A stretch of DNA of 64,000 nt from Escherichia phage PhaxI. The notes under the pieces are model-generated. The model worked only from the letters and a program-made list of their open reading frames with translations. It made no database searches and was not told the DNA's origin. Positions within the stretch are counted from its first letter, which is position 1. The number at the start of each line of letters is the position of its first letter. The position numbers and the translations under genes were made by a program. The stretch lies in the sequence record JN673056. The stretch is one strand, 5' to 3'. This document shows, piece after piece, positions 3,423 through 63,171 of the stretch.

Positions 3423-3428
3423 ATTTAT

Positions 3429-3896
3429 TTATAACAATCGTTTGGTTTTGGGTTTGCCCATGAGAGTGATATTGACATTTATTCCCGCTTTCTTCATGCG
3501 CTTGATCATGTCTTGCGTCCCAGTAGACGAACCATCCCATAATGCAATTCCAAAGACCCTCAAGATCTTTTTGCTTTGCCACGATAGAGCATTGTCAGCA
3601 TATCTTGGGTTGCGTTGATTCCCTGCGCTTTCCCATAATAATGTATGGTAATTCTTAGGAATTGCCATCGGGGTGATATGGACATAATTGATTTCACACC
3701 AATCACGGGATATCAGGTCGACACCCACCGCTTCGCCTTCTATAAAAGTTTCGATCTCGTGCGGATCTAACAGTTCATCCAGTTTGGTGAATATTTTGTC
3801 CCGTTCGGTTATAGAACGGGAACCCGTTATAAGAACGATATACTTCTTCATAGAACTCACAGCGCCCCAAGATTGCTGATGACGTACAGGCTGCAT
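3429..3896 (-). CDS. Rossmann-like protein with DprA/SLOG-like motifs
   Basis: 155-aa ORF; motifs ITGSRS and WDGSSTGT resemble DprA/SLOG-family nucleotide-binding folds; assignment by motif only. Confidence 0.35.
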   Translation of the reverse strand: MQPVRHQQSWGAVSSMKKYIVLITGSRSITERDKIFTKLDELLDPHEIETFIEGEAVGVDLISRDWCEINYVHITPMAIPKNYHTLLWESAGNQRNPRYADNALSWQSKKILRVFGIALWDGSSTGTQDMIKRMKKAGINVNITLMGKPKTKRLL

Positions 3897-4216
3897 AGCG
3901 GGGTTCCTGACGAACGCGGTTCTATGTTCATCCCTGATAGGCGGATCAGTTCCAGCAAACCGTCGGTGGTCTGATACGCTCGAGTCGAACCGTTCGGACG
4001 ATATAGCTCCAACTCGGTTCGCCCTTCCTTTAATGCGTTGCGGATACGGGTAAAGACACTATGTTCTTGATATTTTTGGCGCAGAAGATCCAAGCGTGTG
4101 ATGACGTTGCGACTACGGGTGCGCCGCCGAGGTGAAGAAACAACCAATTTCATTTCCGGTGATTTACAAGCCATGTTGTAGTCCTCTATTTGTAGGGGAG
4201 GGTATGCGTTTAACAT
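3857..4216 (-). CDS. hypothetical protein
   Basis: 119-aa ORF; start uncertain. Confidence 0.3.
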   Translation of the reverse strand: MLNAYPPLQIEDYNMACKSPEMKLVVSSPRRRTRSRNVITRLDLLRQKYQEHSVFTRIRNALKEGRTELELYRPNGSTRAYQTTDGLLELIRLSGMNIEPRSSGTPLCSLYVISNLGAL

Positions 4217-4241
4217 ACCCCATTCAATGTTTTAGAACAAA

Positions 4242-4755: not shown

Positions 4756-4784
4756 AGTATACGGGGTTTATTGAAGAAGTAAAC
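4756..4784 (-). promoter_or_regulatory. sigma70/T4-early-like promoter GTTTAC-N17-TATACT
   Basis: On minus strand GTTTAC then 17 nt then TATACT, about 45 nt upstream of the ATG at 4706. Confidence 0.4.
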
Positions 4785-4820
4785 CCCGTTTATTGAAGAA
4801 GTAAACCCCGTTTATTGAAT
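4766..4820. repeat. tandem direct repeat, 22 bp x about 2.5 copies (GTTTATTGAAGAAGTAAACCCC)
   Basis: Two exact units at 4766-4787 and 4788-4809 plus a partial third; each unit is itself an imperfect palindrome and carries the GTTTAC -35-like hexamer on the minus strand. Confidence 0.7.
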
Positions 4821-4831
4821 AAATTTAAAAA

Positions 4832-9498: not shown

Positions 9499-9816
9499 TT
9501 ACTTGTTCTTACTCAGTCCCATCATTTTGCGGAACTTCATAGCCTTTTTCTTGCGGCGCTCGATTTTACGTTGATAGCCCATTCCCATACGCTTTTTAGA
9601 GCGGAGGGCTTTGCGGTTGCCGATCTTGCGAACACGACGTTCGCTGGCGTCCATAACTTCACAACGTGAACCATCAGCCGACAATTTGAACCCAGGGGCA
9701 CATTTCAAGCGGCGGCGGCGTTTACCACGAGCGTTCACTTTATCGATGACTCGCTGCTCGTCCATACGAGAGGCCAGGAAATCAGCGAACGTGGCGATCT
9801 CTGTGATTTCCATCAT
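9499..9816 (-). CDS. small basic protein, prohead core/internal-protein-like
   Basis: 105 aa, very Arg/Lys-rich; SD AAGGAG upstream; position as T4 genes 67/68. Confidence 0.4.
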   Translation of the reverse strand: MMEITEIATFADFLASRMDEQRVIDKVNARGKRRRRLKCAPGFKLSADGSRCEVMDASERRVRKIGNRKALRSKKRMGMGYQRKIERRKKKAMKFRKMMGLSKNK

Positions 9817-9824
9817 GCATCTCC

Positions 9825-9995
9825 TTACTGGCCGTTGTTGTTTGAATTCATATCGGCTGCGATAGAATCCAGAACATATGCTGTGCCTTGGTTTAATAGT
9901 TCTTGACTACGTGCATCAAGTTCCATGTTGCATTCTGCAACAGCAGTTTCAGTGTCACCGTCAATTACTGCACGAACGATATCAATTGCGCTCAT
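9825..9995 (-). CDS. small acidic protein (56 aa), not in ORF track
   Basis: ATG at 9995 with SD GGAGAT; stop TAA at 9825-9827; late-promoter-like CTAAATAT about 28 nt upstream. Confidence 0.45.
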   Translation of the reverse strand: MSAIDIVRAVIDGDTETAVAECNMELDARSQELLNQGTAYVLDSIAADMNSNNNGQ

Positions 9996-29585: not shown

Positions 29586-32369
29586 TTAAATAGAAGAATC
29601 CAATATACGGTAACTAATTAACTTAGTAGGGTCTACAGGATTAATCAGGTTGTAGTACCGTGAAGATACATAATCATTCTCAGAAGAGAACATACCAACA
29701 TACACTTTAGCACCTACACCAGAACAGGCATCCCCACCAGCATTGCTATCCGAGAAGAATGTTAATGAGGAAGTTAATCCGAATATAGAATTAAATGGTA
29801 CGGCTAAATAAGCGCCTCGGAATGACCGTCTGATTCTCTTACCCGTCTGAATATTAAGAATACTCCACCAGAAATATCCAGGTTTAGCACCAATAGCTAT
29901 ATGATATGGTACACCACTTTGTAGTTTAAGGTCGTTAGGTAAATCCCCAGATAAAATTTGGGTTGTACCATCGCCCCCCAATAGCAAAGCAATTGTTTGT
30001 TTTCCAGAAGCGTCTATAACTAATTGAAGATGAAGACTGTTGGATGTATCACTAAACCCTGAACCAATGGCCATGAAGTTAAATACTTCAGCTCCAGATA
30101 TGGTAGGTACTACAACAGCAGCCATGGTAATACCTTCTGGACCTGCTGTTCTTGAATACAGTAATTTATCTTTGTTGGCTTGTGATAGTCTCAGACCATT
30201 TACTTGCCCTACAGAAGATGGGACACTTACATAAACAGGTGTAGTGCTAACACCATCAAATGTAGGGGTCTCGTTCATGGTTTGCAAACCAGTCTTGGAA
30301 TAATTAACCAATCCGTTAATGCTCAGGTCGGAATTGGTGGGGTTGATAATATTGTTATCACCAATAAAGTTAATGCCCATATAACCAGTCTCAACCACAC
30401 CATTAATGGTGACACTACAATCATTAGACAGGAACTGAAAATTGCCTGCACTAGAGTTAGCACCTGAACCACTATTCGCGGCATAATTGAGTCCTACGAA
30501 TCCGTTGATAACTGCATCGCTTTTGTTAAATACGATGTTGTAGAAAGTGTTGTTAGCATTGATGCCGTTACGATTGGTGTTCAATCCGTTCATGGAAATT
30601 GAATATGAATCGCTAATCTCAATGCCATTCCCGCCACAATCTTGTACCTCAATACCATTAATAACCATATTCTGGCTGTTATTAATAGTAATGCCTGGGA
30701 ACTGTCCTACTGTACCATAAGGTTGCCAGTTAGCCCAAATGAATTTACCGCCCAATAAATACGAACCATTACCACAACCATCAAGAACCAGACATTGTTT
30801 ACCGCAGGTATTAACCTGGATATTTGTCCAAGTCCAATCAGTAGTAGCACAACGGACACCCACCTGATTGATGTGGTTGACTAAAAGAGAATCTGTAGTA
30901 ACACTAAAGTTACCACTATCAATATTTAACCCATATTCATCAAAACCTGCTATATGGACCTTAGAAATACACAAGTCGCGTCTTGGGTCTGCGGTAGTGT
31001 GGAACGGATAATCGGCTGAGAGACCTGAAGGAGTTTCTACATAGATACCTGTTGTGCCCGCAGTAAATGGCATGCCTTGTTGTGCACCTGTGCCATATAC
31101 CCCAAAGGCGTCTAATACAATAAGGGAGCATGTATCTTTTATGGTAATACAATTCCCAGTAGCAGAAGGCAACTGATGCAACCTTGAGTAATGTAATCCA
31201 GACCCATAAATAGACGACGTATTATATTTTAACTGGATATTGCTAACGTAATGTGCATCAGTTAATTGTGTGGCCTTACCACTATCCACACAAGATTGTA
31301 CTGGAATAGTATCATCATTAGAACCACCCAAAGCACCAAACATGAATGGGTTAACTCTATCAGCATTAACACGTAACCATGCCGCGCCGCCAACAGTTTT
31401 GATCACAGTACCGTTATTATCAGTCTTTCCTGTACCATCAATTAACGCACGGAATACCCCTCCACCAAGAAGAGTACCCGCAGTGTGTTGCTTAAGAATA
31501 ATGCGTTGTCCATCCATAGTGGGTTCAGTATTCCTGAGATCAGCAACAGAATGGCATTCTCCAATATACTTGGCACCATCATTGCGCCCCAGAGTGTTTA
31601 TCACATTAATAAATGAATCCTCTAAAGGCAACAAATCAACCTGCACATCACCTGGGTTGTAATTCAATTTCCCAGCAGATACAGAAGAAATGACAGAACC
31701 ATCAGGAATGGTTGGTAAACCATAACTGGTTTGCGTCGCTATATCATAAACAACTTTCTTCCCATCCAACAAAGATATGGTGTCCGTACTAACGATGACT
31801 TCAGAGTCTTTTACATTAGCAGAACGGGCGATTTCTTGAATACTTCGGTCAAACGCCGGACTGATATTCGGTTGTTTAACAGACATTTCAGCGACTACCC
31901 AAACGCCTGCAGTCAGTGCAGTTTGCAAAGACACTTTCCCTGTCGTGCTGTTATAGGAATATTCAATTTCGGGTGTTTTGTACTCGCCACCGATATAAAG
32001 AGATTGGACACCATAGGATGTGAAATCAGGAGTGAACTCGGTTTCACCTCCCACGGCCTGAAATTTGTATATGCGGATACCTTTGGCTGTATCTTCTGGC
32101 GAAAGAATTTTATCGAATAAGCAATACACAACATCGCCTTTGGACAATGCGCGCCCGAGATTCAACGTATTTCCTTCGATTTCAAAGTTGTCTAACGGAA
32201 CTTGCATACCACCGTTGATTGTGACTACGCCAGTGACAGGATAGAACGGCAAGGAAAGGAAAGTTTCTCCACCAACATTTGATTTATACGTGAAAGGAAT
32301 CTGGTGGGGAGCTGTGATTACGCCGCCGAATAATTCTTCTACATTTCTGGTCATTTGAAAATACCCCAT
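29586..32369 (-). CDS. tailspike protein with right-handed beta-helix-like domain (927 aa)
   Basis: Asn/Gly/Ser-rich repeats such as NGIEISDSYSISMNGLNTNRNGINANN; related anchor segment near residue 170; CTAAATACCCC motif upstream. Confidence 0.65.
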   Translation of the reverse strand: MGYFQMTRNVEELFGGVITAPHQIPFTYKSNVGGETFLSLPFYPVTGVVTINGGMQVPLDNFEIEGNTLNLGRALSKGDVVYCLFDKILSPEDTAKGIRIYKFQAVGGETEFTPDFTSYGVQSLYIGGEYKTPEIEYSYNSTTGKVSLQTALTAGVWVVAEMSVKQPNISPAFDRSIQEIARSANVKDSEVIVSTDTISLLDGKKVVYDIATQTSYGLPTIPDGSVISSVSAGKLNYNPGDVQVDLLPLEDSFINVINTLGRNDGAKYIGECHSVADLRNTEPTMDGQRIILKQHTAGTLLGGGVFRALIDGTGKTDNNGTVIKTVGGAAWLRVNADRVNPFMFGALGGSNDDTIPVQSCVDSGKATQLTDAHYVSNIQLKYNTSSIYGSGLHYSRLHQLPSATGNCITIKDTCSLIVLDAFGVYGTGAQQGMPFTAGTTGIYVETPSGLSADYPFHTTADPRRDLCISKVHIAGFDEYGLNIDSGNFSVTTDSLLVNHINQVGVRCATTDWTWTNIQVNTCGKQCLVLDGCGNGSYLLGGKFIWANWQPYGTVGQFPGITINNSQNMVINGIEVQDCGGNGIEISDSYSISMNGLNTNRNGINANNTFYNIVFNKSDAVINGFVGLNYAANSGSGANSSAGNFQFLSNDCSVTINGVVETGYMGINFIGDNNIINPTNSDLSINGLVNYSKTGLQTMNETPTFDGVSTTPVYVSVPSSVGQVNGLRLSQANKDKLLYSRTAGPEGITMAAVVVPTISGAEVFNFMAIGSGFSDTSNSLHLQLVIDASGKQTIALLLGGDGTTQILSGDLPNDLKLQSGVPYHIAIGAKPGYFWWSILNIQTGKRIRRSFRGAYLAVPFNSIFGLTSSLTFFSDSNAGGDACSGVGAKVYVGMFSSENDYVSSRYYNLINPVDPTKLISYRILDSSI

Positions 32370-39450: not shown

Positions 39451-39766
39451 CCAACGGGAATCAAAACGCTCGCGCGCGTTTAATTTATTCGAATATACTC
39501 GCGAGGGGGCTGACGCCCTCGCTCGTAACACCGCCTTGACAGGCAGTCCCATTCCGCAGCCATGGAGGCTGCTTCTCGTTGTTCGTTAACACTCACAACT
39601 CGAAGGGCACCGCGTTAAGATACAGTTTCTTGATGTTGTAGAAAAGTAGTTTTTACCTATTAATAATCACTGTCATTATTTTATTGGCCATTCCTGCGTT
39701 TATATTCAATAAACGTATCCCCAATATAATAATGGAGACATTTAATCAATTCGGTGAGGCTCCGGA

Positions 39767-43583: not shown

Positions 43584-43689
43584 AACACAATGAGAGAAAC
43601 TGAAGTGAGAAAGCTCGGTTAAACGAGGGAGTAATTCAGGAGTATCTCACCACTAAATAAACCAGTTGTTCAATAAACAATTGGTGAGT

Positions 43690-43890
43690 ATGATGAAAAC
43701 GTTCGGTGATTTTCTTACTGAGTGGGATGGTCTCGCTACCGACAACAAAGAGATTGTTGAGTTTGTTGAAAAGCGAGGCGATAAGTGGGTTGTCCTTGAC
43801 CACACCAAGACTAAAGTTCTTGGGACACATGACACCAAAGCTGACGCGGACGCCCAATTAAGGGCGATCGAAGCGAATAAACATAGTTGA
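43690..43890 (+). CDS. hypothetical small protein (66 aa)
   Basis: ATG at 43690 with SD GGTGAG; CTAAATA motif about 35 nt upstream; sits inside the RNA island. Confidence 0.4.
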   Translation: MMKTFGDFLTEWDGLATDNKEIVEFVEKRGDKWVVLDHTKTKVLGTHDTKADADAQLRAIEANKHS

Positions 43891-50756: not shown

Positions 50757-50785
50757 AAGTATACGCCAGTTATTGAAGAAGTAAA
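50757..50785 (-). promoter_or_regulatory. sigma70/T4-early-like promoter GTTTAC-N17-TATACT
   Basis: Same architecture and same TTCTTCAATAA spacer core as 4756-4784; upstream of the ATG at 50708. Confidence 0.4.
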
Positions 50786-50803
50786 CTTTATTCAATAAAT
50801 ATT

Positions 50804-51709: not shown

Positions 51710-54706
51710 ATGACTGTTTTCTATACGAACGTTGCCCGACAGGGTAACGACCTTCTGATTCGTATTGCAGACGACAACGGCAATCGCCGTATGTTGCGTA
51801 AGAAATTCGAACCCACCTTGTATTTACCCACAGCCGATTATTCCAAAGTTGAAAAGATTGGCCTCCTCAATGAACCGTTGGTGTCTAAAAAATTTGCGTC
51901 AATGCGTGACGCCGACAACTATCTGGAGGAATATAAGGAGGTCGAAGGCGCTGCCGTTTACGGACAAACGGATTATGCATATCAATTCATAGCGCATAGT
52001 TTTCCTGGGATGATTACCCCCGATTACTCAAATATTCACATCGCCAACGTGGATATCGAAGTTTTCTCGGCTGGGTGGCGCGATGGAGAAATGACTAAAG
52101 GCCCATTTCCTCACGCGACGATTGAATCCCACACGTTTAAGGGGAGTGAGGCGCGTGTTCGCCGATTCCATAAGCAAGTGTTGGCCAACCATGATTTCGT
52201 TCGAGAGCATTTCCCAGGTTCCTTTATTTCCAACAACGTGACTGACCAGTTCCCTATCATTGATAGTAATGGTAAGATCACACAGAACATGAATGCCGCC
52301 TTCCCTATTACGCTCATCCAGCTTCAAGACATGAACACCAACAAGTTCTATGTCTGGGGTATGCCGTGTTCTAAGGATCGCCATAAATTCAAATATGATC
52401 CAAATGATGAAGAGATAGGTGGTCTTGAGGTTGAATACAAAGAATACACGACTGAACAAGAACTTCTTCGCGCCTTCTTAGATTATTGGTCTGAACGTCA
52501 ATTTGATGGTTGGACTGGCTGGAACATCGAAACGTTTGATAGCCCGTACTTGGTTGAACGTATTACGCAGGTTCTCGGCGAAACCCAGGCAGAGCGCCTC
52601 AGTCCTTGGGGCAAACTCAAGAAACGTTTCATCAAAGACCGTAAAGGCGACGTGACTTCTTATCAATTCGTGGGTTGTCCTATGATGGACTACATGCAAG
52701 TTTACAAGAAACACACGTACACAACCCGCGAAAAATACTCACTGGATTGGATCGCTTATTGTGAACTCGGTGAGAAGAAGTTGGATTATAGTGAAAGCAA
52801 GTCATTGTATGATCTATATTTTAATGATTATTGCAAACACACCCGATATGGTATCAAAGACGTCAAACTCGTGTGGCGTTTAGAACAAAAGCTGCGTTTG
52901 ATACAGCTGATGTTCGTATTGGCGTATCGCACCAAATCTAACTATGAAGACGGTCTTGGGACTGTAGCACCATGGCTGGCGATGTGTTACTATCGTCTTT
53001 ATGAAAAGGGGATTGTCCCTAAAATACAGCGTGTGTATGATGGTCCAACGGACTTTGAAGGCGCATATGTCATGGAGGTTGCACCAGGGATATATTTCTG
53101 GGTATTCTCTGAGGACTTAAACTCCCTGTATCCCCACATCATACAGCAATACAACCTTGGTCCTGAGACTATCGTATCTGACAAGCACACACGTCGCGAT
53201 ATCATTGAGTCCATGTGTGAGGAATTAACCAAAGCGATGAATGATATGACAACGCCTATGAACAAGCGCCGTCATCTCAAAAATCTTCACGACAAGCTGC
53301 AGCGTGCTATTGATGAACGCATACAAGTTGTTGATGAATTGGTCGCGCTGGGTGAATTCCATTTTGAAACATTACGTCGATATAACGTTTCGTTTACCCC
53401 GAACGTTCAGTTCTTCAGTAATGAGAAGATGTCTTTCCTTTCCGAAATTATGCGAGGCATATACGCTGACCGTAAAGGAGAGAAAGCAACTGGCCTGAAG
53501 TATGAGCAATGGGCTGGTTGGTGTAAGGAAATGTCTAAAGGTGATTTCCACCTTGAATCTGCCATGAAGTCTCGTTTCTACGATCCTGAATGGTATGAAG
53601 AACACAAGCATATCGACCTTGATCACCTGACTGAAGTCATGCACAAGTGGGAAGATTTGGGAGTTGCCCAAGATACGTTACAACAAGGTCTGAAGATCTT
53701 GATGAACGCAGGATATGGTGCAATTTCTAACGTCTGGTTTAAAGAATACTTCAACATCAACATCGCTGAAGCAATTACCACTTCCGGCCAGCTGATCAAT
53801 AAATGGAACAAACGCCACACTGATGATTATCTGAACAAACTTTGTGGTACTACTGGTCAGGATTTTGTTATCGCAGGTGATACAGACTCCAACTACATTT
53901 GCATTGAACGCCTGGTCAAGCAATTGTGGCCTGAAGAAAAGGACCATCACAAACTCGTTGATAACATTGACCAATGGATCAAAGAGAATTACCAGCCAAA
54001 AACCAGTGAATGGGCGCAGTTGTTGTGTAATACCATGAACGGGTTTGAGCAGCGCATGGTCTGGGAACGTGAGGTCATCGCATCGTCTGCTGTATGGCGA
54101 GCCAAGAAGATGTATTGCATGGCAGTATACGATAGCGAAGGCATCAAGTATGAGAAACCAAAGATCAAATTCAAAGGTCTGGAAGCGCGTAAATCTACAA
54201 CGCCGGAATGGTGTCGTGAGCGTCTTGTCAAATGTTATGAGAAAGTCCTGCTCGGTACTGAGGCGGAGGTTCAGGAATTAATCGCTGGATACAAAAAGGA
54301 ATATATGGAACTCACCGTGGATGATATCGCTCAGGCATCTGGTGTGAGCGATATTGAGAAGTGGTTAGACGCGAACGGGAATTACATCAGCGGTACGCAC
54401 TTTGCTGCCAAGGCTTGTATTATGTACAACAAGCTGATCGATAAGCACGAAGATCTCGGTCTTCCGCCTATCGAATCCGGTGATAAGGTTAAAATCATCA
54501 ACCTGAAACCTGGCAATCCTGTGGGGAATGATCGCATAGCCTTCCCTGACTTCCTTCCTCCAGAATTGGGATTGGATAAATGGGTGGATTACCACACCAC
54601 GTTTGAAAAGACCTTTATAGAGCCAATTCAGTCTATCTTGGATGTGGTTGGTTGGTCTCATAAACGTCGAGTTAATCTGTTGTCCATGATGGGCAAGAAA
54701 GGTTGA
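51710..54706 (+). CDS. gp43: DNA polymerase, family B, T4 gp43-like
   Basis: 998 aa from ATG at 51710 with SD GGAG; N-terminus MTVFYTNVARQGNDLLIRIADDNGNRRM...KKFASMRDADNYL parallels T4 gp43 MKEFYISIETVGNNIVERYIDENGKER...QKFPSMKDARDWM. Confidence 0.9.
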   Translation: MTVFYTNVARQGNDLLIRIADDNGNRRMLRKKFEPTLYLPTADYSKVEKIGLLNEPLVSKKFASMRDADNYLEEYKEVEGAAVYGQTDYAYQFIAHSFPGMITPDYSNIHIANVDIEVFSAGWRDGEMTKGPFPHATIESHTFKGSEARVRRFHKQVLANHDFVREHFPGSFISNNVTDQFPIIDSNGKITQNMNAAFPITLIQLQDMNTNKFYVWGMPCSKDRHKFKYDPNDEEIGGLEVEYKEYTTEQELLRAFLDYWSERQFDGWTGWNIETFDSPYLVERITQVLGETQAERLSPWGKLKKRFIKDRKGDVTSYQFVGCPMMDYMQVYKKHTYTTREKYSLDWIAYCELGEKKLDYSESKSLYDLYFNDYCKHTRYGIKDVKLVWRLEQKLRLIQLMFVLAYRTKSNYEDGLGTVAPWLAMCYYRLYEKGIVPKIQRVYDGPTDFEGAYVMEVAPGIYFWVFSEDLNSLYPHIIQQYNLGPETIVSDKHTRRDIIESMCEELTKAMNDMTTPMNKRRHLKNLHDKLQRAIDERIQVVDELVALGEFHFETLRRYNVSFTPNVQFFSNEKMSFLSEIMRGIYADRKGEKATGLKYEQWAGWCKEMSKGDFHLESAMKSRFYDPEWYEEHKHIDLDHLTEVMHKWEDLGVAQDTLQQGLKILMNAGYGAISNVWFKEYFNINIAEAITTSGQLINKWNKRHTDDYLNKLCGTTGQDFVIAGDTDSNYICIERLVKQLWPEEKDHHKLVDNIDQWIKENYQPKTSEWAQLLCNTMNGFEQRMVWEREVIASSAVWRAKKMYCMAVYDSEGIKYEKPKIKFKGLEARKSTTPEWCRERLVKCYEKVLLGTEAEVQELIAGYKKEYMELTVDDIAQASGVSDIEKWLDANGNYISGTHFAAKACIMYNKLIDKHEDLGLPPIESGDKVKIINLKPGNPVGNDRIAFPDFLPPELGLDKWVDYHTTFEKTFIEPIQSILDVVGWSHKRRVNLLSMMGKKG

Positions 54707-54766
54707 TTCAATAAACCAAAGGGGGATATAATTCCCCCTGTTATCCCTTTGACAACAGGTATTGTT

Positions 54767-55108
54767 ATGAAACTCAATAAGATTCTTCTGGTGTGTGCTC
54801 TGGCTTTCTCTACCACTGCATGCTCTACCCTTCTGGACGTTGCGTCTACTGTTGACCTCGATGCGCCGACGTTCACCAATCAGCAAGCGGTGAATAAGAT
54901 GGAAGACACCATCAAAGCACATGCAGCTTTGGACAACACCACTCCTGGTCCGTTGCAAACTGTTTGCAATTATGATGATTCCATCCAGGAAGATGAAACC
55001 TATCACTGCACCACTTACGTGAAGGAATCTTCTGTGGTTCTGTATGCAGATTGCACAGAGAGCATGCACGCAACTGGTTATGATCAAGTGGAGAAGTCTG
55101 ATGAATAA
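54767..55108 (+). CDS. putative secreted/lipoprotein
   Basis: MKLNKILLVCALAFSTTACS signal-like N-terminus from ATG at 54767. Confidence 0.45.
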   Translation: MKLNKILLVCALAFSTTACSTLLDVASTVDLDAPTFTNQQAVNKMEDTIKAHAALDNTTPGPLQTVCNYDDSIQEDETYHCTTYVKESSVVLYADCTESMHATGYDQVEKSDE

Positions 55109-55883: not shown

Positions 55884-56196
55884 GGAGGACATCGTGCAAG
55901 AACAATCCAAGTTTGGGAACCCAGACAAGCGTTCAGGTGATAGCGATATGGATGGCGTTATTATCCATGTGAACAACTTCATTCGTAAACAAACCACACC
56001 CACTTCCGTTGGTGCGGCGCTGGAGTTAAAGCGTGTTCTGATAGAGAACGGTATGGCACCAGATGACGATGAAATTTTCTATAACTTTGAAGACCAGTAT
56101 AAAGTGAAGTTTGTAGAAAACGAACGTCCACAGGTTGCTGTTTTCTGGTCTCCCTGGTTGGGCGGTGTGAGCTGGCGTATTGAGGAAGATGCATAA
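55858..56196 (+). CDS. hypothetical protein
   Basis: 112-aa ORF; start uncertain. Confidence 0.35.
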   Translation: MAIINTSVEEDIVQEQSKFGNPDKRSGDSDMDGVIIHVNNFIRKQTTPTSVGAALELKRVLIENGMAPDDDEIFYNFEDQYKVKFVENERPQVAVFWSPWLGGVSWRIEEDA

Positions 56197-57861: not shown

Positions 57862-59093
57862 TACACATTTCTAAAATGCCGCAGGGGTATAAAGCCCCTG
57901 AAAAATGGAAATACCCGATTGATCTGGCAGTAGATTATCGTAAGCCAGAAAATCGCATGTACCTGCTCAAGGCATGGGTGGAGGCGCTATCCTACACTGA
58001 AGAGCATAACCAGCAAGTCCGTCTGATGGATTATGCCATCGAGGTTACAGAAGGCATCACACAGCTCGAGAAGATCGAGCGCAAGATTTGGATGGCCTTT
58101 TTGTGGGGTTGTTGCTATAATGGGATTGGACCATGGACAATTTACAGTGAATTTCCTGTACCCCCACAATCTCCGAAAGAGTTTCAGCGATTTTCTGATT
58201 GGTATAACCTGAACTTTGATCGTATGCGCTTCGATACAGATTGTCGTTATCGTAAGTCGAAGATGATTCCGTGCGTTCAGTCCTATATCGATTGGTTGGG
58301 TGGTAAAACCCAAATGGATTCTTTTCGTTGGATGTTGGAATGCACTACCAAGGAAGACCAGTTCACCGAACTGTGGAATACGGCGATGTCATGGAAATAC
58401 TTTGGCCGCCTGAGCGCATGGAACTTCCTGGAAGCCCTGAACATGGTCTTCGGTAACATATGGGATATAGACGTCCCTGGCTTCATGTTGCGTGACCGCG
58501 ATGGCAGCGAGTCCAACCGCAACGGCGCGGCATTCTTGTCAAACCGTGACGACTGGGTGACCAAGCACGGGAAGAAAAAGATCAACGGTTGTCCTATTAC
58601 AGACGAAGAATGTGATATACTCGAAACCGACCTTGAGAAAGCATTTCAGGAATGCGTTGAAGAGTTCGGCCACATCACGTTTATCAATCGTCTGAACTTT
58701 GAGACCTCCGGTGCTTGTTGGCTGAAGAAATTCTTCCGACTGAAGAATACCCGTTACATCGGGTGGGACGCCGAGCGTACATGGGACGAGATCGATTATA
58801 TGGAGCGTATTTGGCCTGAATACTCCTGTGCGCCTCTCTGGGAAGCCCGTTCCCTCTGGCTACCAGATACCCTGTTGTGCGAAAAAGCTCCTACAGGGCA
58901 CGTTCCTGGCGTCCAGAAGTGGAAGATGCCTGTGTTCTTTGAGACGGGTGTTCCTCTACATATATGGCACCTGCAGCAGGGTACGCGTTGGGAACCATCT
59001 GAGGTTTACACTAATCTGAAAATGCCCGTCCGAAAGATAGAGGACAATCCGAAGTCGACCAGTGTAAACCTCATGTCTTTGTTGAAGCGCTGA
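57858..59093 (+). CDS. hypothetical protein (411 aa), candidate DNA base-modification transferase
   Basis: Large Trp/Cys-rich ORF in the same block as the kinase and PLP enzyme; SD GGGAG; function is inference only. Confidence 0.5.
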   Translation: MIHISKMPQGYKAPEKWKYPIDLAVDYRKPENRMYLLKAWVEALSYTEEHNQQVRLMDYAIEVTEGITQLEKIERKIWMAFLWGCCYNGIGPWTIYSEFPVPPQSPKEFQRFSDWYNLNFDRMRFDTDCRYRKSKMIPCVQSYIDWLGGKTQMDSFRWMLECTTKEDQFTELWNTAMSWKYFGRLSAWNFLEALNMVFGNIWDIDVPGFMLRDRDGSESNRNGAAFLSNRDDWVTKHGKKKINGCPITDEECDILETDLEKAFQECVEEFGHITFINRLNFETSGACWLKKFFRLKNTRYIGWDAERTWDEIDYMERIWPEYSCAPLWEARSLWLPDTLLCEKAPTGHVPGVQKWKMPVFFETGVPLHIWHLQQGTRWEPSEVYTNLKMPVRKIEDNPKSTSVNLMSLLKR

Positions 59094-59129
59094 TATAAAT
59101 ATCCTCACCTATAAAGTGAGGATATTATC

Positions 59130-59297
59130 ATGTTACAAGATCTGTTGGTGTACGCGCTTCCTGGCGTTGTTGTCGGCTTCGTAGCTGGCGCTCTGGTCTT
59201 CCGTAAACACGCGCAAGACGGTGAAGTGATTGTTCAGAAGGGTAAAGACATCCTGGAACAAATCGAAGCCAAACTGGACGAGCTGAAGAAAAAGTAA
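59130..59297 (+). CDS. small membrane protein (55 aa), not in ORF track
   Basis: ATG at 59130 with SD GAGGA; LVYALPGVVVGFVAGALVF hydrophobic helix; terminator downstream. Confidence 0.4.
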   Translation: MLQDLLVYALPGVVVGFVAGALVFRKHAQDGEVIVQKGKDILEQIEAKLDELKKK

Positions 59298-59322
59298 TCT
59301 GATTGCGATTGCGTTCTTCAAT

Positions 59323-59365
59323 AAAGGGGAATGGGTTATTATTAGCCCGTTCCCCTTTCTTTTTG
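59323..59365 (+). terminator. rho-independent terminator
   Basis: AAAGGGGAATGGG...CCCGTTCCCCTTT hairpin followed by CTTTCTTTTT. Confidence 0.55.
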
Positions 59366-59378
59366 CAAGGATTGATTT

Positions 59379-59570
59379 ATGACACCTCAATACAAAATAT
59401 TGGTCACCAGCCGTTGTTATGCTTATGGACAGGGTGAAGCAATATCAGTACACACAGTTGTAGTTGATTTTGAAAACAAAGAACAAGCAGATTTGGCATT
59501 CTATAATATGCAGCAGAGCACAGCTCCTGCCGATATTGGCGTTAAACAAGTTTATACGAAATTATACTGA
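59379..59570 (+). CDS. hypothetical small protein
   Basis: 63-aa ORF. Confidence 0.4.
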   Translation: MTPQYKILVTSRCYAYGQGEAISVHTVVVDFENKEQADLAFYNMQQSTAPADIGVKQVYTKLY

Positions 59571-59581
59571 GGTCCTATATC

Positions 59582-59794
59582 ATGGCAATGCAACGAATTG
59601 AAGACATGTCTGTGCTCGATATGGAAGCGACATTTGGCGACTATTTTGAATCTACCCCGAAACAAAAAGACTCTCGAGTTGGCCGTCTGGTAGTTTCTGA
59701 AGCGTTCACACAGAAGGTTCGCGAAGGTCTTCCACCCGAATATGGATGCTTCCGTAATGGCGCTTCCGTTATCGTCATGGGAGAATCTAAATGA
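59582..59794 (+). CDS. hypothetical small protein
   Basis: 70-aa ORF. Confidence 0.4.
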   Translation: MAMQRIEDMSVLDMEATFGDYFESTPKQKDSRVGRLVVSEAFTQKVREGLPPEYGCFRNGASVIVMGESK

Positions 59795-60177
59795 CGCAGT
59801 CAGGATACAAACAATATTTGTACGATCTGTTCATGAAAGAAACAGACGGCGCATTACATCCTAAGAAAGCGACTATTGTTAAATTGCATTCTGAAGGTGA
59901 TTTGTCTATAGCATATATCCGAAAAGAACTCGATTTGATGGGAATCGAATACGAAGACCACATCACGGATACACGTGCTTTAAAAAGAGCAACAGCAATC
60001 GTTCTTCACACCGTTGCAACAATTATGCATCGCCACCATGTTTCTTTTGACGATGCAATAACTCCACAGTATCATGAAGAACGCTGGGAATTGCTCAAAT
60101 TGAACGGGGCGCACAGTTCTCACAAAAATCAACTCCTTGGTATGACGAAGGAACAACTCGTGGATGGTGTGTTATGA
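59791..60177 (+). CDS. hypothetical protein
   Basis: 128-aa ORF overlapping neighbours by 4 nt. Confidence 0.45.
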   Translation: MTQSGYKQYLYDLFMKETDGALHPKKATIVKLHSEGDLSIAYIRKELDLMGIEYEDHITDTRALKRATAIVLHTVATIMHRHHVSFDDAITPQYHEERWELLKLNGAHSSHKNQLLGMTKEQLVDGVL

Positions 60178-61283
60178 TTTACCTTCTGTTTGTGGTTCCT
60201 GTAATTTTGGCCATCTTGTTTGTGATATATCACCGCAAGACTCATGAGCCAAAGGAGACTTTGATCGCCACGGCCATTGTTATCGTATTGTCTTGCCTTA
60301 TCCAGTCGGGATTATATGCTGCTTTCTCCCTTGGTAGTTCTGGGGACGTGGAAATTTTGAATGGATATGTAACTGATAAGCAACGGAATAAGGTGGGTTG
60401 TGAACATTCTTATGAATGTATGTGCTATTACACAACATCTTGCTCTGGTTCAGGAAATAACCGATCTTGTACACAAACGCGTCATTGCAGCACATGCTAT
60501 GAGCACTCTTATGACGTTGATTGGGACGTATTAACAACCGTCGGTGATCTGAGCATTGACCGTATTGATCGTCAGGGTACTACAGAGCCTCCGCGTTGGG
60601 CACAAGTTAAAATCGGGGAACCTGCGGCACGTGAACATTCATATATGAATTATGTGCTGGGCAACAAAGATTCATTATTCTCTAAATCTGACCAGCAATT
60701 CGCTGAGAATTTCAAAGAGCATATCCCTTCATATCCAAGGGTGTATGATTATTACCGAGTAACCCGTGTTCTGAATATGTCAGGGATGGACATTCCTGTT
60801 GATTACTGGAATGATTATCTGAACGACACTCTGAAAACATTAGGTGCTTCACGTCAGGTTAATATCGTTTGGGTTGTGACTTCTGGCCAGCCTGTTGAAT
60901 ATTTTCAGGGACTTCTATATGCATGGTCCGGCGGTAAAAAGAACGATGTTATTGTAGTCACCGATATTTCAAAGGATATGAAAATTAATTGGGGTAAGTC
61001 TACGTCATTTGCCGACGGCATGAACAACATGGAACTCCATTCTCGTAACGGACTTTCATTGACTGGGAAACCAATGGGTATATCCGTGTTCCAAGAAGTT
61101 GCGGTCAATATCAGTAAGGGATACAACCGAGTTGAGATGAAGGAAATGGAATATCTGAAATGGCGAGATCTTAAAACTTGGGAAGTGATTATCGTCGTGC
61201 TGTTTGGATGTATCCCTTTTACCGCAGTTTTCATATTAGGCCGCATGCAGTACAATGGTCGAACTTATAAACGTTTGTTTTAA
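60174..61283 (+). CDS. membrane protein with Cys-rich extracytoplasmic region
   Basis: 369 aa; N- and C-terminal transmembrane helices; cluster CEHSYECMCYYTTSCSGSGNNRSCTQTRHCSTC. Confidence 0.5.
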   Translation: MIYLLFVVPVILAILFVIYHRKTHEPKETLIATAIVIVLSCLIQSGLYAAFSLGSSGDVEILNGYVTDKQRNKVGCEHSYECMCYYTTSCSGSGNNRSCTQTRHCSTCYEHSYDVDWDVLTTVGDLSIDRIDRQGTTEPPRWAQVKIGEPAAREHSYMNYVLGNKDSLFSKSDQQFAENFKEHIPSYPRVYDYYRVTRVLNMSGMDIPVDYWNDYLNDTLKTLGASRQVNIVWVVTSGQPVEYFQGLLYAWSGGKKNDVIVVTDISKDMKINWGKSTSFADGMNNMELHSRNGLSLTGKPMGISVFQEVAVNISKGYNRVEMKEMEYLKWRDLKTWEVIIVVLFGCIPFTAVFILGRMQYNGRTYKRLF

Positions 61284-61298
61284 CAAGAGGAAGTAAAG

Positions 61299-61868
61299 AT
61301 GTCACAACGTAAAGGTATTTCAATTGGTTGGATTGTTGGGTTGGCGATTCTAGCATTTGCTGTAATTGGGATTGGCAGTGTGGTTAGCTATTTCAATGAC
61401 TTCAACCGCATTGAACAACAGGTCAAAAAGTTCAACAAAGATTCTGAAAACCACCTGAGCAACTACACGCTCAAAGTTCAGGAGACGGCGCAGATTCCTG
61501 ACATGTACAAAAACGGTTTGAAGGAAGTGATCAAAGATACTTTCCAAGGCCGTTATGGCGCGGACGGTTCCAAAGCAGTAATGCAATGGATTCAGGAACA
61601 GAATATTCAGTTTGATTCATCTTTGTACAAAGAGATTCAGGTTGTTATCAGCTCAGGTCGGGATGAATTCCGCATTAGCCAAACTAAAAAATTGGACGCA
61701 TGTGCGATCTATGAAACTAAACTTGGCCAGTTCCCTGGTTCTCTGATAGCAGGAATCTTTGGATATCCGCGTATCGATCTTGACAAGACATGTCAGGTGG
61801 TGAGTGACACCCGCACCCAGGCCGCATTTGACTCCGGTGTCCAGACTCCGATTAACTTCAAAGGCTGA
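61299..61868 (+). CDS. LemA-like membrane-anchored protein
   Basis: 189 aa; N-terminal transmembrane helix then helical domain, size and layout typical of LemA-family proteins; motif-level only. Confidence 0.4.
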   Translation: MSQRKGISIGWIVGLAILAFAVIGIGSVVSYFNDFNRIEQQVKKFNKDSENHLSNYTLKVQETAQIPDMYKNGLKEVIKDTFQGRYGADGSKAVMQWIQEQNIQFDSSLYKEIQVVISSGRDEFRISQTKKLDACAIYETKLGQFPGSLIAGIFGYPRIDLDKTCQVVSDTRTQAAFDSGVQTPINFKG

Positions 61869-61872
61869 TCTT

Positions 61873-62295
61873 ATGAGCGTGAAACTAACCGAATCTCTGA
61901 CGCTGGAACAGCAACAGGCGTTACTGGATGAAGTGGTAATCTCTGCCATCAAGCAGGGCATTATCAAAGACGACACGTTGTTGACGCGCCCCGAAATGAT
62001 CCATCATCTGGTGGTGTGCCTGGGTGAAGCCAATAATCCTCGCAAAAAGATTGTAATGTTCAAAGAAGGCATTATTTATCCCAATGGAAGATTCGCTTGG
62101 TTAACCCTATCGGGAAGTCATCCGGATTTGAAGGATGAACAGAAAGAAATCAAAACTTCTGTTCCGGTAACGCCATACACCGAAGGAGTTGATTTATTGT
62201 CTTGGTTTGAGACTATCAATACCATCTATGTCATGGCACCTGATGGTAAGCCAGCACAGGATCTGCGTGGTGGGGTTGTAGGTTCGGAAGACTAA
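61873..62295 (+). CDS. hypothetical protein
   Basis: 140 aa from ATG at 61873 (track start 61804 overlaps previous gene). Confidence 0.45.
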   Translation: MSVKLTESLTLEQQQALLDEVVISAIKQGIIKDDTLLTRPEMIHHLVVCLGEANNPRKKIVMFKEGIIYPNGRFAWLTLSGSHPDLKDEQKEIKTSVPVTPYTEGVDLLSWFETINTIYVMAPDGKPAQDLRGGVVGSED

Positions 62296-62311
62296 TAGTT
62301 CTTCAATAAAT

Positions 62312-62345
62312 GGGGATAGGGTATTATTGCTCTATCCCCTTTTCA
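62312..62345 (+). terminator. rho-independent terminator
   Basis: GGGGATAG...CTATCCCC hairpin followed by TTTTCA. Confidence 0.5.
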
Positions 62346-62356
62346 TGGGCAAGAAC

Positions 62357-62728
62357 ATGACAGACAAGCCAAGAAAGATAGCGATTATTGGAGGAGGAAT
62401 CGGCGCTCGGACTATGGCCATTATCCTTCAAGAAAAGTTGAAAGGTGTTGAAGTAGAATGTATCAGTGTAGACGATATTCCTAAACGTCGTTGTGAACCA
62501 GGTGAACGCATGATAATTTGTGATGATCTGGTAGAAAGCGAACGCAAAACCTTGGTATCTCAAGCGGTGGCTCAGTTACGGAAGTCAGATATTTCGTATT
62601 GTGAAGCAGAAGCCGATGACAGAGACATAATTGCGTCACAACGTTATCAAAAGCCGCCGCGCCTATATGGAGCCGCCCAACATAAACGTCAGGCTAAGAA
62701 ATATAAAAATCGGAGTAAACGAAAATGA
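62357..62728 (+). CDS. hypothetical protein with glycine-rich Rossmann-like motif
   Basis: ATG at 62357; IAIIGGGIGARTMAIIL motif; basic C-terminus. Confidence 0.4.
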   Translation: MTDKPRKIAIIGGGIGARTMAIILQEKLKGVEVECISVDDIPKRRCEPGERMIICDDLVESERKTLVSQAVAQLRKSDISYCEAEADDRDIIASQRYQKPPRLYGAAQHKRQAKKYKNRSKRK

Positions 62729-63171
62729 CTACTCAAAAACCAACTTATGAGGAATTGGCCACTGCATTGATCCACATGGATGATGCCTTCCAAGATCTCT
62801 TTGGCCAAGTATGCTCTAATCCAGTGATGAATGCTTGGGGCAAGCCCGTTAACTTTGCTGTTATGAACAAACACCGCGAACAGGCAAGTTCAACTATTAG
62901 CAATTTGCGTCAAACGATGGATGTAAAACAACCAAGCATCCAACGGTATCTTGAAAACTTCGATGAGTATTCTTTCAAAGACCTTCTGTTCAAAGATCTA
63001 GTCGAGCAAGAGCAACGCAGACAGAGTAAGAACTGCTCTGAAGTACAATCTTCTGATGAAATTCGTCAGAACATAGAACAAGAATTCGACAATGCATACG
63101 ATCCTATCGGTTTGGCTGTTATGATCGTAAAAGCTCTGTCGTATGCAGCAAAAGGTGAAACAAATGTCTAA
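62725..63171 (+). CDS. hypothetical protein
   Basis: 148-aa ORF. Confidence 0.45.
   Translation: MTTQKPTYEELATALIHMDDAFQDLFGQVCSNPVMNAWGKPVNFAVMNKHREQASSTISNLRQTMDVKQPSIQRYLENFDEYSFKDLLFKDLVEQEQRRQSKNCSEVQSSDEIRQNIEQEFDNAYDPIGLAVMIVKALSYAAKGETNV

Follow-up and report, generated by a model that had tools for sequence, protein, structure and literature searches.

A recurrent nine-nucleotide box at a set distance from a -10-like hexamer in Escherichia phage PhaxI, and its candidate role in terminator/promoter cassettes

We report herein that the box TTCAATAAA recurs 13 times in a 64,000-nucleotide stretch of the genome of Escherichia phage PhaxI (sequence record JN673056; the whole of this stretch is called the window), where 1.2 copies are expected, and that none of 100 shuffled sequences reached this count. 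Exactly five copies in the window, all on the + strand (39705, 43669, 54707, 59317, and 62302), conform to TTCAATAAA-N11-TATNAT, and at three of them, elements A, B, and C, the hexamer at N11 is also the hexamer of a hairpin loop. The arrangement TTCAATAAA-N11-TAnnnT, which from its sequence has the look of a promoter rule, is in our opinion the most interesting part of this study. We consider it likely that the units are composite terminator/promoter cassettes, the Ackermannviridae counterpart of PeSL and PmSL elements, with termination, initiation, and the start site all predicted. A first-pass annotation of the same DNA had drawn attention to the recurrence, which indeed exceeds chance, and had suggested that one unit may serve as a terminator for the upstream gene and as a promoter for the next. 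Comparative evidence, i.e., the spacing rule, hairpin covariation, conservation, and prior annotation, supports such a putative dual function. The spacing rule from the box to TATNAT is an addition to that annotation.

The window is a segment of a Kuttervirus (ViI/CBA120-like, Ackermannviridae) genome, and its part from 58000 to 63000 shares 99.6% identity with Salmonella phage SJ3 and 96.5% with Escherichia phage CBA120. By the CBA120 annotation, elements A, B, and C lie past the DNA polymerase gene, inside a run of + strand genes of the early/middle type.

Elements A, B, and C

A sequence check recovered the three elements where the first-pass annotation had put them, letter for letter, and bore out its view that B and C are paralogues (78% identity over a mutual alignment of ~73 nt), which carry the two exact copies in the window of the 13-mer GTTCTTCAATAAA. 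The related element that it had seen at 54703, here A, comprises TTGATTCAATAAA (54703-54715) and a hairpin (54720-54739). The features are as follows.

54707..54715, + strand: box of A, TTCAATAAA, abutting (0 nt) the TGA stop codon (54704-54706) of the DNA polymerase gene
54720..54739, + strand: hairpin of A, AGGGGGA/TCCCCCT, with the 6-nt loop TATAAT (54727-54732) N11 past the box
59317..59325, + strand: box of B, TTCAATAAA, preceded by GTTC (59313-59316), the whole 13-mer spanning 59313-59325
59337..59342, + strand: -10-like hexamer of B, TATTAT, exactly N11 past the box, at the top of the hairpin
59323..59358, + strand: putative terminator hairpin of B, 16 pairs, loop UUAU, -26.5 kcal/mol
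62302..62310, + strand: box of C, TTCAATAAA, preceded by GTTC (62298-62301), the whole 13-mer spanning 62298-62310
62322..62327, + strand: -10-like hexamer of C, TATTAT, N11 past the box
62312..62339, + strand: putative terminator hairpin of C, 12 pairs, -21.6 kcal/mol with flanks, followed by TTTT (62340-62343)

In element B, the 13-mer is followed by GGGGAATGGGTTATTATTAGCCCGTTCCCC up to 59355 and by the T-run TTTCTTTTT up to 59364, past which come the SD sequence aagga (59367-59371) and an ATG (59379). Upstream lies a 55-aa membrane ORF (59130-59297), whose TAA stop codon (59295-59297) is 19 nt before the box. The hairpin is far more stable than its shuffled counterparts (z -6.7), and the same segment folds to only -17.9 kcal/mol on the - strand. 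A GC-rich hairpin followed by the U-run UUUCUUUUU, i.e., by at least four U, is what is expected of an intrinsic terminator. In an alignment of seven orthologues, 99.1% of the cells are paired, versus 37-66% in slid controls; double changes are seen at three pairs, and one-sided changes that are compatible with wobble pairing at seven. Because the elements are so conserved, real covariation comes only from the Miltonvirus copies, and the alignment effectively represents about three lineages. The terminator half of B is well supported, and its predicted effect is strong.

Element C follows a 140-aa-class ORF that ends at 62295, with its TAA stop codon (62293-62295) 6 nt before the box, and precedes an ATG at 62357, with an alternative in-frame ATG at 62345. 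Its hairpin is also stable relative to shuffles (z -5.4) and weaker on the - strand (-15.6 versus -21.6 kcal/mol). The T-run consists of only four Ts before CATGG, which still supplies the at least four U (UUUU) of an intrinsic terminator; the orthologues in Ag3 and in Dickeya phages have UUUUU. The terminator half of C is reasonably supported, and its predicted effect is moderate. In both B and C, several G·U pairs make the + strand RNA much more stable than the - strand RNA, and this argues for a hairpin formed as RNA in the sense transcript.

Element A, with its downstream ATG at 54767, has a weaker hairpin (-15.1 kcal/mol, z -2.0). It is a perfect DNA palindrome that folds equally on both strands, and it lacks a proper T-run (TGTTATCCCTTTG; in RNA, UGUUAUCC), so that it does not qualify as an intrinsic terminator. 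Since there is no good T-run, A is probably a promoter and at most a weak attenuator; its terminator half is poorly supported, being weak or absent. The first-pass annotation had credited every copy with a box, a hexamer inside a hairpin, and a T-run. The box and the enclosed hexamer hold for all three, and the T-run holds for B, shrinks to four Ts in C, and fails in A.

Two further hairpins were seen near these elements. Between A and the next start codon, a small hairpin CCTGTT...AACAGG (54745-54759, + strand) includes TTGACA without a mismatch (54749-54754), together with some of the SD region, and is conserved in Ag3 and in Dickeya, Klebsiella, and Serratia phages. Upstream of the 55-aa ORF that precedes B, a hairpin (59098-59126; -14.4 kcal/mol, z -4.9) shares part of its 5' arm with the exact T4 late-promoter consensus TATAAATA (59094-59101, + strand), and its 3' arm holds the SD (gagga) of that ORF, which starts at 59130. 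This device (59094-59132) is conserved in four genera, appears as a "putative late promoter" in the LIMEstone1 record, and resembles that of T4 gene e, soc, and I-TevI, in which the ribosome-binding site is free in late transcripts, these being initiated within the hairpin, and is sequestered in read-through transcripts. As the 55-aa ORF just upstream of B has its own late consensus, B probably separates a single-gene late unit from the following genes. A second TATAAATA (3426-3433, - strand) lies upstream of an ORF with the first codons ATGTTACAAATACTGTTGGTG, which resemble the start of the 55-aa ORF at 59130 (ATGTTACAAGATCTGTTGGTG); the two ORFs may encode paralogous small late membrane proteins.

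The box and its distance to the hexamer

Throughout, the box is mostly intergenic and co-directional with the genes, and its gap to a TAnnnT hexamer is 11 nt (range, 10-13), with no canonical -35 element. A genome-wide look at the copies, as the first-pass annotation had proposed, was taken in the assembled genome of CBA120 with its gene table, where intergenic DNA makes up 8.7% of the genome. Eighteen of the 24 exact boxes in CBA120 are intergenic (P=6e-15), and 15 of these 18 face a co-oriented downstream gene. Six of the 18 have a -10-like hexamer at exactly N11 (P=4e-9; background, 0.8% per position), and seven units have the nested box-hairpin form. In the more distant Serratia phage KNP4 (Miltonvirus, 48.8% GC), 15 exact boxes were found where 0.4 are expected. 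The offsets from box to hexamer peak at N11 (9 sites), 17 fall within N10-13, and each of these is then followed by SD and ATG; at some of them a hairpin surrounds the hexamer.

Not all N11 sites have a hairpin. The following two in the window belong to the N11 class, here taken as putative promoters, without a terminator hairpin.

39705..39730, + strand: TTCAATAAA-N11-TATAAT
43669..43694, + strand: TTCAATAAA-N11-TATGAT, in the tRNA/small-gene region

Hairpin-free sites also occur in CBA120 (26056, 27977, 85281, and 133395) and make up most of the KNP4 sites. The spacing of box-N11-TAnnnT is kept across copies with unrelated spacers, whether a hairpin is present or absent. The converse was approached by a census that was independent of the box and covered all terminator-like intergenic hairpins on both strands of CBA120 (n=86). 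Most of the loops are of the GAAA, TTCG, or CGAA type. Seven hairpins carry a -10-like hexamer in the loop on the sense strand, and all seven have the box 10-13 nt upstream. These are A, B, and C plus four with stems unrelated to them (CAGAGGC/GCCTCTG, GGCGGTT/AACCGCC, GGGGCTGC/GCAGCTCC, and GATCATAG/CTATGATC). Thus, the box and the hexamer travel together whatever the sequence of the stem.

Pooling 18 N11 sites from CBA120 and KNP4 gave the consensus ttnTTCAATAAa-N8-gg-n-TATnAT, with SD and ATG ~25-37 nt past the hexamer. Positions -35 to -33 were uninformative apart from a weak T, and there is only a weak G at -15/-14; neither a sigma-70 -35 hexamer nor a TGn extended -10 was found in this 18-site alignment. 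Host RNA polymerase alone may for that reason not use these sites. A generic sigma-70 promoter scan scored A alone among the elements, as TTGATT-N18-TATAAT. Reading TTCAAT or nnnTTC as the sigma-70 -35 was tried and rejected, as it would require a 14-nt spacer or an unconserved hexamer. A late-promoter role for the box was likewise discarded, since exact matches to the T4 late consensus are few here and form a class of their own. When the composite was scanned loosely, with as many as 2 mismatches allowed in the box and a gap of N10-13 to TAnnnT, the window gave 24 matches versus 13 in Markov controls; this was considered too noisy, and only boxes that were exact or had 1 mismatch were used. 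The virion DNA of ViI-like phages is said to contain hypermodified thymidines, which could alter the recognition of T-rich motifs.

The box also occurs in a second arrangement, GTTTAC-ttc-TTCAATAAn-N5-TATAMT, in which a T4-early-like -35/-10 pair at N17 encloses it in the spacer. Two instances were found in the window.

4756..4823, - strand: three tandem 22-bp units TTCAATAAAcggggtttacttc (4767-4823), ending in GTTTAC (4784-4779)-N17-TATACT (4761-4756)
50758..50786, - strand: GTTTAC-ttc-TTCAATAAC-tggcg-TATACT

At the first of these, the last box sits in the spacer, and a hairpin CGGGGTTTA/TAAACCCCG spans the -35 to the spacer. The 22-bp unit is present in three copies in the window and in two in CBA120; this difference within a close pair of phages suggests that the cassettes undergo slippage or recombination. 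The occurrence of the box at N5 within GTTTAC-N17-TATACT spacers means that it is not simply a core element at a fixed position. As a separate observation, CBA120 orf063, annotated as a "transcriptional regulator" with a weak DUF4078 Pfam match only, lies between box elements (30508-30532 and 31268, - strand), with a nested box-hairpin unit on its upstream side and, on its downstream side, two TTTACTTCAATAAAAC units that overlap; this setting might hint at autoregulation.

Conservation, earlier records, and related systems

A, B, and C show hardly any variation at their orthologous sites in Kuttervirus, Agtrevirus (Ag3), Limestonevirus (Kamild and LIMEstone1), and Taipeivirus (Magnus and IME250). 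Their flanks in those genera share only 72-78% identity, so that the elements are conserved far better than their surroundings. They were also found in 22 IMG/VR loci, and B extends to a fifth genus, Miltonvirus. The first-pass annotation had named a lack of conservation in related phages as the outcome that would speak against its proposal, and the five genera clearly show the opposite.

The Miltonvirus copies of B (phiMAM1-like; loci L028 and L029) retain a perfect box and N11, with the hexamer GATAAT, and A and C are gone there. Their stem differs at 7 of 11 core pairs as judged by eye, or at 9 of 16 in the fold, and still pairs, with four G·U pairs. The loop hexamer of the B orthologues reads TATTAT, TAATAT, TAACAT, TATATT, or GATAAT, retaining TAnnnT or, at the minimum, A(-11) and T(-7); at one locus, it is TAATAA and fits only with a one-base shift. 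Element B is also an island of homology with indels on both sides. The alignment of Taipeivirus with the window is confined to 59314-59383, with other genes on either side of B, and Ag3 and two further loci (L010 and L013) are without the 63-aa ORF, the breakpoint (59371/59576) lying immediately 3' of B. No indel boundary was seen at A or C in the genomes compared. Separately, relatives carry inserted homing-endonuclease genes and a small extra ORF (Ag3, 3555-4241 and 9701-9829 of locus L006; Dickeya phages, ~2666-5147 of L007/L032). Those insertions map to ~56186-56195 and 61875-61880 of the window, where the sequence is contiguous, and are not associated with box elements.

Parts of these elements have been annotated before. 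The LIMEstone1 record (HE600015) places a terminator at the B orthologue and, at the C orthologue, a terminator enclosing a "minus_10_signal, putative promoter" (loop TATTAT); the GenBank record of Marshall also annotates B as a terminator. Neither record annotates the box, and HE600015 shows a promoter at neither A nor B and makes no mention of a recurrent class or a spacing rule. Promoters in LIMEstone1 were called via similarity to T4 or host consensus sequences (Adriaenssens et al. 2012, PMC3296691). For CBA120, early and middle promoters were reported as not identifiable by informatics, and these phages were reported to have no MotA/AsiA (Kutter et al. 2011, PMC3184105). Among the 8 annotated regulator-type proteins of CBA120, Pfam returned HU, a gp33 co-activator, a zinc ribbon, and DUFs, and no MotA/AsiA or obvious reader of the box. 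Rfam gave a sub-threshold chance match only (P31, 25 bits versus a cut-off of 40). A search of the accessible literature by motif string and Kuttervirus promoters, a scope that did not extend to the 2012 Viunalikevirus paper, found no description of the box; nor were maps of 5' or 3' transcript ends of ViI-like phages found in that literature. The abstract of the Viunalikevirus genus paper (Arch Virol 2012) reportedly mentions "conserved regulatory sequences". Both the box and the factor that reads it appear to be undescribed.

The closest known systems are found in T4-type phages. The PeSLs (promoter-early stem-loops) of RB49/phi1, PST/T4, and nt-1/KVP40 are short, repeated intergenic elements that combine a promoter with a GC-rich terminator stem-loop. 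Each opens in AT-rich sequence at the stop codon of the preceding gene and closes with the SD and ATG of the following one, and the stem-loop is often located between -35 and -10 or overlaps -10 (Arbiol et al. 2010, PMC2839356; Comeau et al. 2014, PMC4122927). In lacZ constructs, PeSLs proved active both as promoters and as terminators, and they are located next to indels (PMC2839356, PMC4122927). The PmSL variant of nt-1 has a Mot box and TATTAT (PMC4122927). Like these, A, B, and C run from a stop codon (0, 19, and 6 nt before the box, respectively) to SD and ATG, enclose the -10-like hexamer in a stable hairpin (z below -5 for B and C), and repeat in the genome, with 24 boxes in CBA120 and 15 in KNP4, fewer than the dozens of PeSLs in RB49. 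An association with indels was seen at B, and not at A or C in the genomes compared. Where PeSLs have a -35 (TTGACA, TTTACW, or TTGYVH at N17), these elements have TTCAATAAA at -32 to -24, N11 from the hexamer, while GTTTAC-N17-TATACT is present at the copies in the second arrangement (4756-4823 and 50758-50786). Moreover, the host of the cassettes is a member of the Ackermannviridae and not of the T4-like subfamily, the nested form numbers three in the window and seven in CBA120, and cassette activity is here predicted from sequence.

With T4 middle promoters and PmSLs, the elements share an upstream box near -30 that replaces the -35, a distance of 11-13 nt to TAnnnT, and a combination with a stem-loop. 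They differ in the box itself, which is TTCAATAAA and not (a/t)(a/t)(a/t)TGCTTtA (MotA box, TGCTTtA), and in that no MotA/AsiA homologue is known in these phages (PMC3184105). B and C resemble intrinsic (Rho-independent) terminators in having a GC-rich hairpin and a U-run directly after a stop codon, but their loop is a conserved -10-like hexamer in place of a tetraloop, and a 9-mer precedes the stem. The sites do not look like host-type sigma-70 promoters, in which one would expect a TGn extended -10 or else a TATAAT-like -10 preceded, 16-18 nt upstream, by a TTGACA-like -35. What is new here is the 9-mer in place of a -35 or Mot box, in a different phage family; the cassette architecture is already known from T4-type phages.

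A candidate mechanism, its alternatives, and their meaning

In the mechanism that we favor, each unit would act twice. As RNA, at the end of the preceding gene's transcript, the GC-rich hairpin and U-run would halt transcripts arriving from upstream. In the DNA, the box (~-32 to -24) and TAnnnT 11 nt downstream, located in the loop of the same hairpin, would serve as a promoter from which transcription resumes into the next gene, with the box replacing the -35 element in the geometry of a T4 middle promoter. For B, the box is predicted at -32 to -24. Initiation ~7 nt past the hexamer would fall inside the 3' arm of the hairpin, at a predicted ~59349 in B and at about 62334 in C. A transcript starting there would be without the 5' arm and could not terminate itself, whereas read-through transcripts could form the terminator. 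The promoter half of this proposal draws on the spacing rule, orientation, distance to the start codon, and pattern of conservation, from which we infer it.

That the elements are terminators and nothing else, the AATAAA of the box being either the A-tract that is common ahead of intrinsic (bidirectional) terminators or a 3'-UTR signal (an RNase E or Hfq site beside a protective hairpin) and the TATAAT-like loop a product of chance, strikes us as improbable. Such a reading would suit the predicted fold of B, in which AAA of the box pairs with UUU of the tail, and the closeness of each box of A, B, and C to a stop codon; a scan also called A and C terminator-like on both strands, as the complement of the box provides a T-rich tail on the - strand. 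On the contrary, the 9-mer with N11 and TAnnnT occurs at many hairpin-free sites and SD and ATG follow at a constrained distance, an A-tract needs no invariant TTCAAT, and the other terminators of the genome have GNRA or UUCG-type loops and no box. Equally improbable is that units of 45-75 bp persist through modular gene shuffling (PeSL-type exchange, mini-circles), with transcription being secondary. The island of homology at B with its breakpoint, the paralogy of B and C, and the change from three to two copies of the 22-bp box unit between close relatives all fit such a mobile cassette, but among the genomes compared no indel boundary coincides with A or C, and recombination leaves the spacing rule at unrelated sequences and the strand-specific G·U pairs unexplained. 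A site acting as a DNA palindrome, be it a cruciform or the target of a dimeric protein, seems very unlikely indeed. It would describe A, which folds equally on both strands, but the G·U pairs of B and C, including the four in Miltonvirus B, become C·A mismatches on the other strand. On the strength of this strand specificity a cruciform was rejected, and the unrelated stems of the other family members offer no common protein site.

A different possibility, to which we assign a minor but appreciable chance, refines the promoter half of our proposal: the box may be the operator of a dedicated transcription factor, encoded by the phage or delivered with the virion, and not a core element for sigma-70. 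The factor would activate class I sites (box at -32 to -24, including A, B, and C) and repress class II sites (GTTTAC-N17-TATACT with the box in the spacer), yielding an early-to-middle switch analogous to sigma appropriation by MotA/AsiA in T4. The layout, a 9-nt box near -28 with a gap of 11 nt (10-13) and no -35, is that of T4 middle promoters and of the PmSL of nt-1, the box is invariant in five genera with different hosts and stands at two discrete registers, N11 and N5, and the signals for early/middle control were reported as unidentified by Kutter et al. (PMC3184105). Nonetheless, no MotA/AsiA homologue has been reported, none is among the annotated regulators, and class II sites are few (3-4 per genome), so that their box could be inherited spacer sequence. 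More tentatively still, TTCAATAAA might be the site of an Ackermannviridae factor unrelated to MotA/AsiA that redirects host RNA polymerase to promoters without a -35 and could shut off GTTTAC-N17-TATACT. If true, the early-to-middle switch of these phages would have evolved independently, and it would supply the promoter code that eluded Kutter et al. (2011).

Returning to the terminator/promoter cassette as the preferred reading, ViI-like (Ackermannviridae) phages are widely used in biocontrol and as chassis for engineering, and ttnTTCAATAAa-N11-TAnnnT gives them a testable promoter candidate that spans at least five genera and maps the boundaries of transcription units. Practical outputs would be compact part sequences for phage engineering and the box as bait for the factor that reads it. 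For the phages themselves, a nested hairpin would insulate neighboring genes from one another within ~45 bp, for example, a late-expressed single-gene unit beside early/middle genes, or the accessory genes inserted on either side of B.
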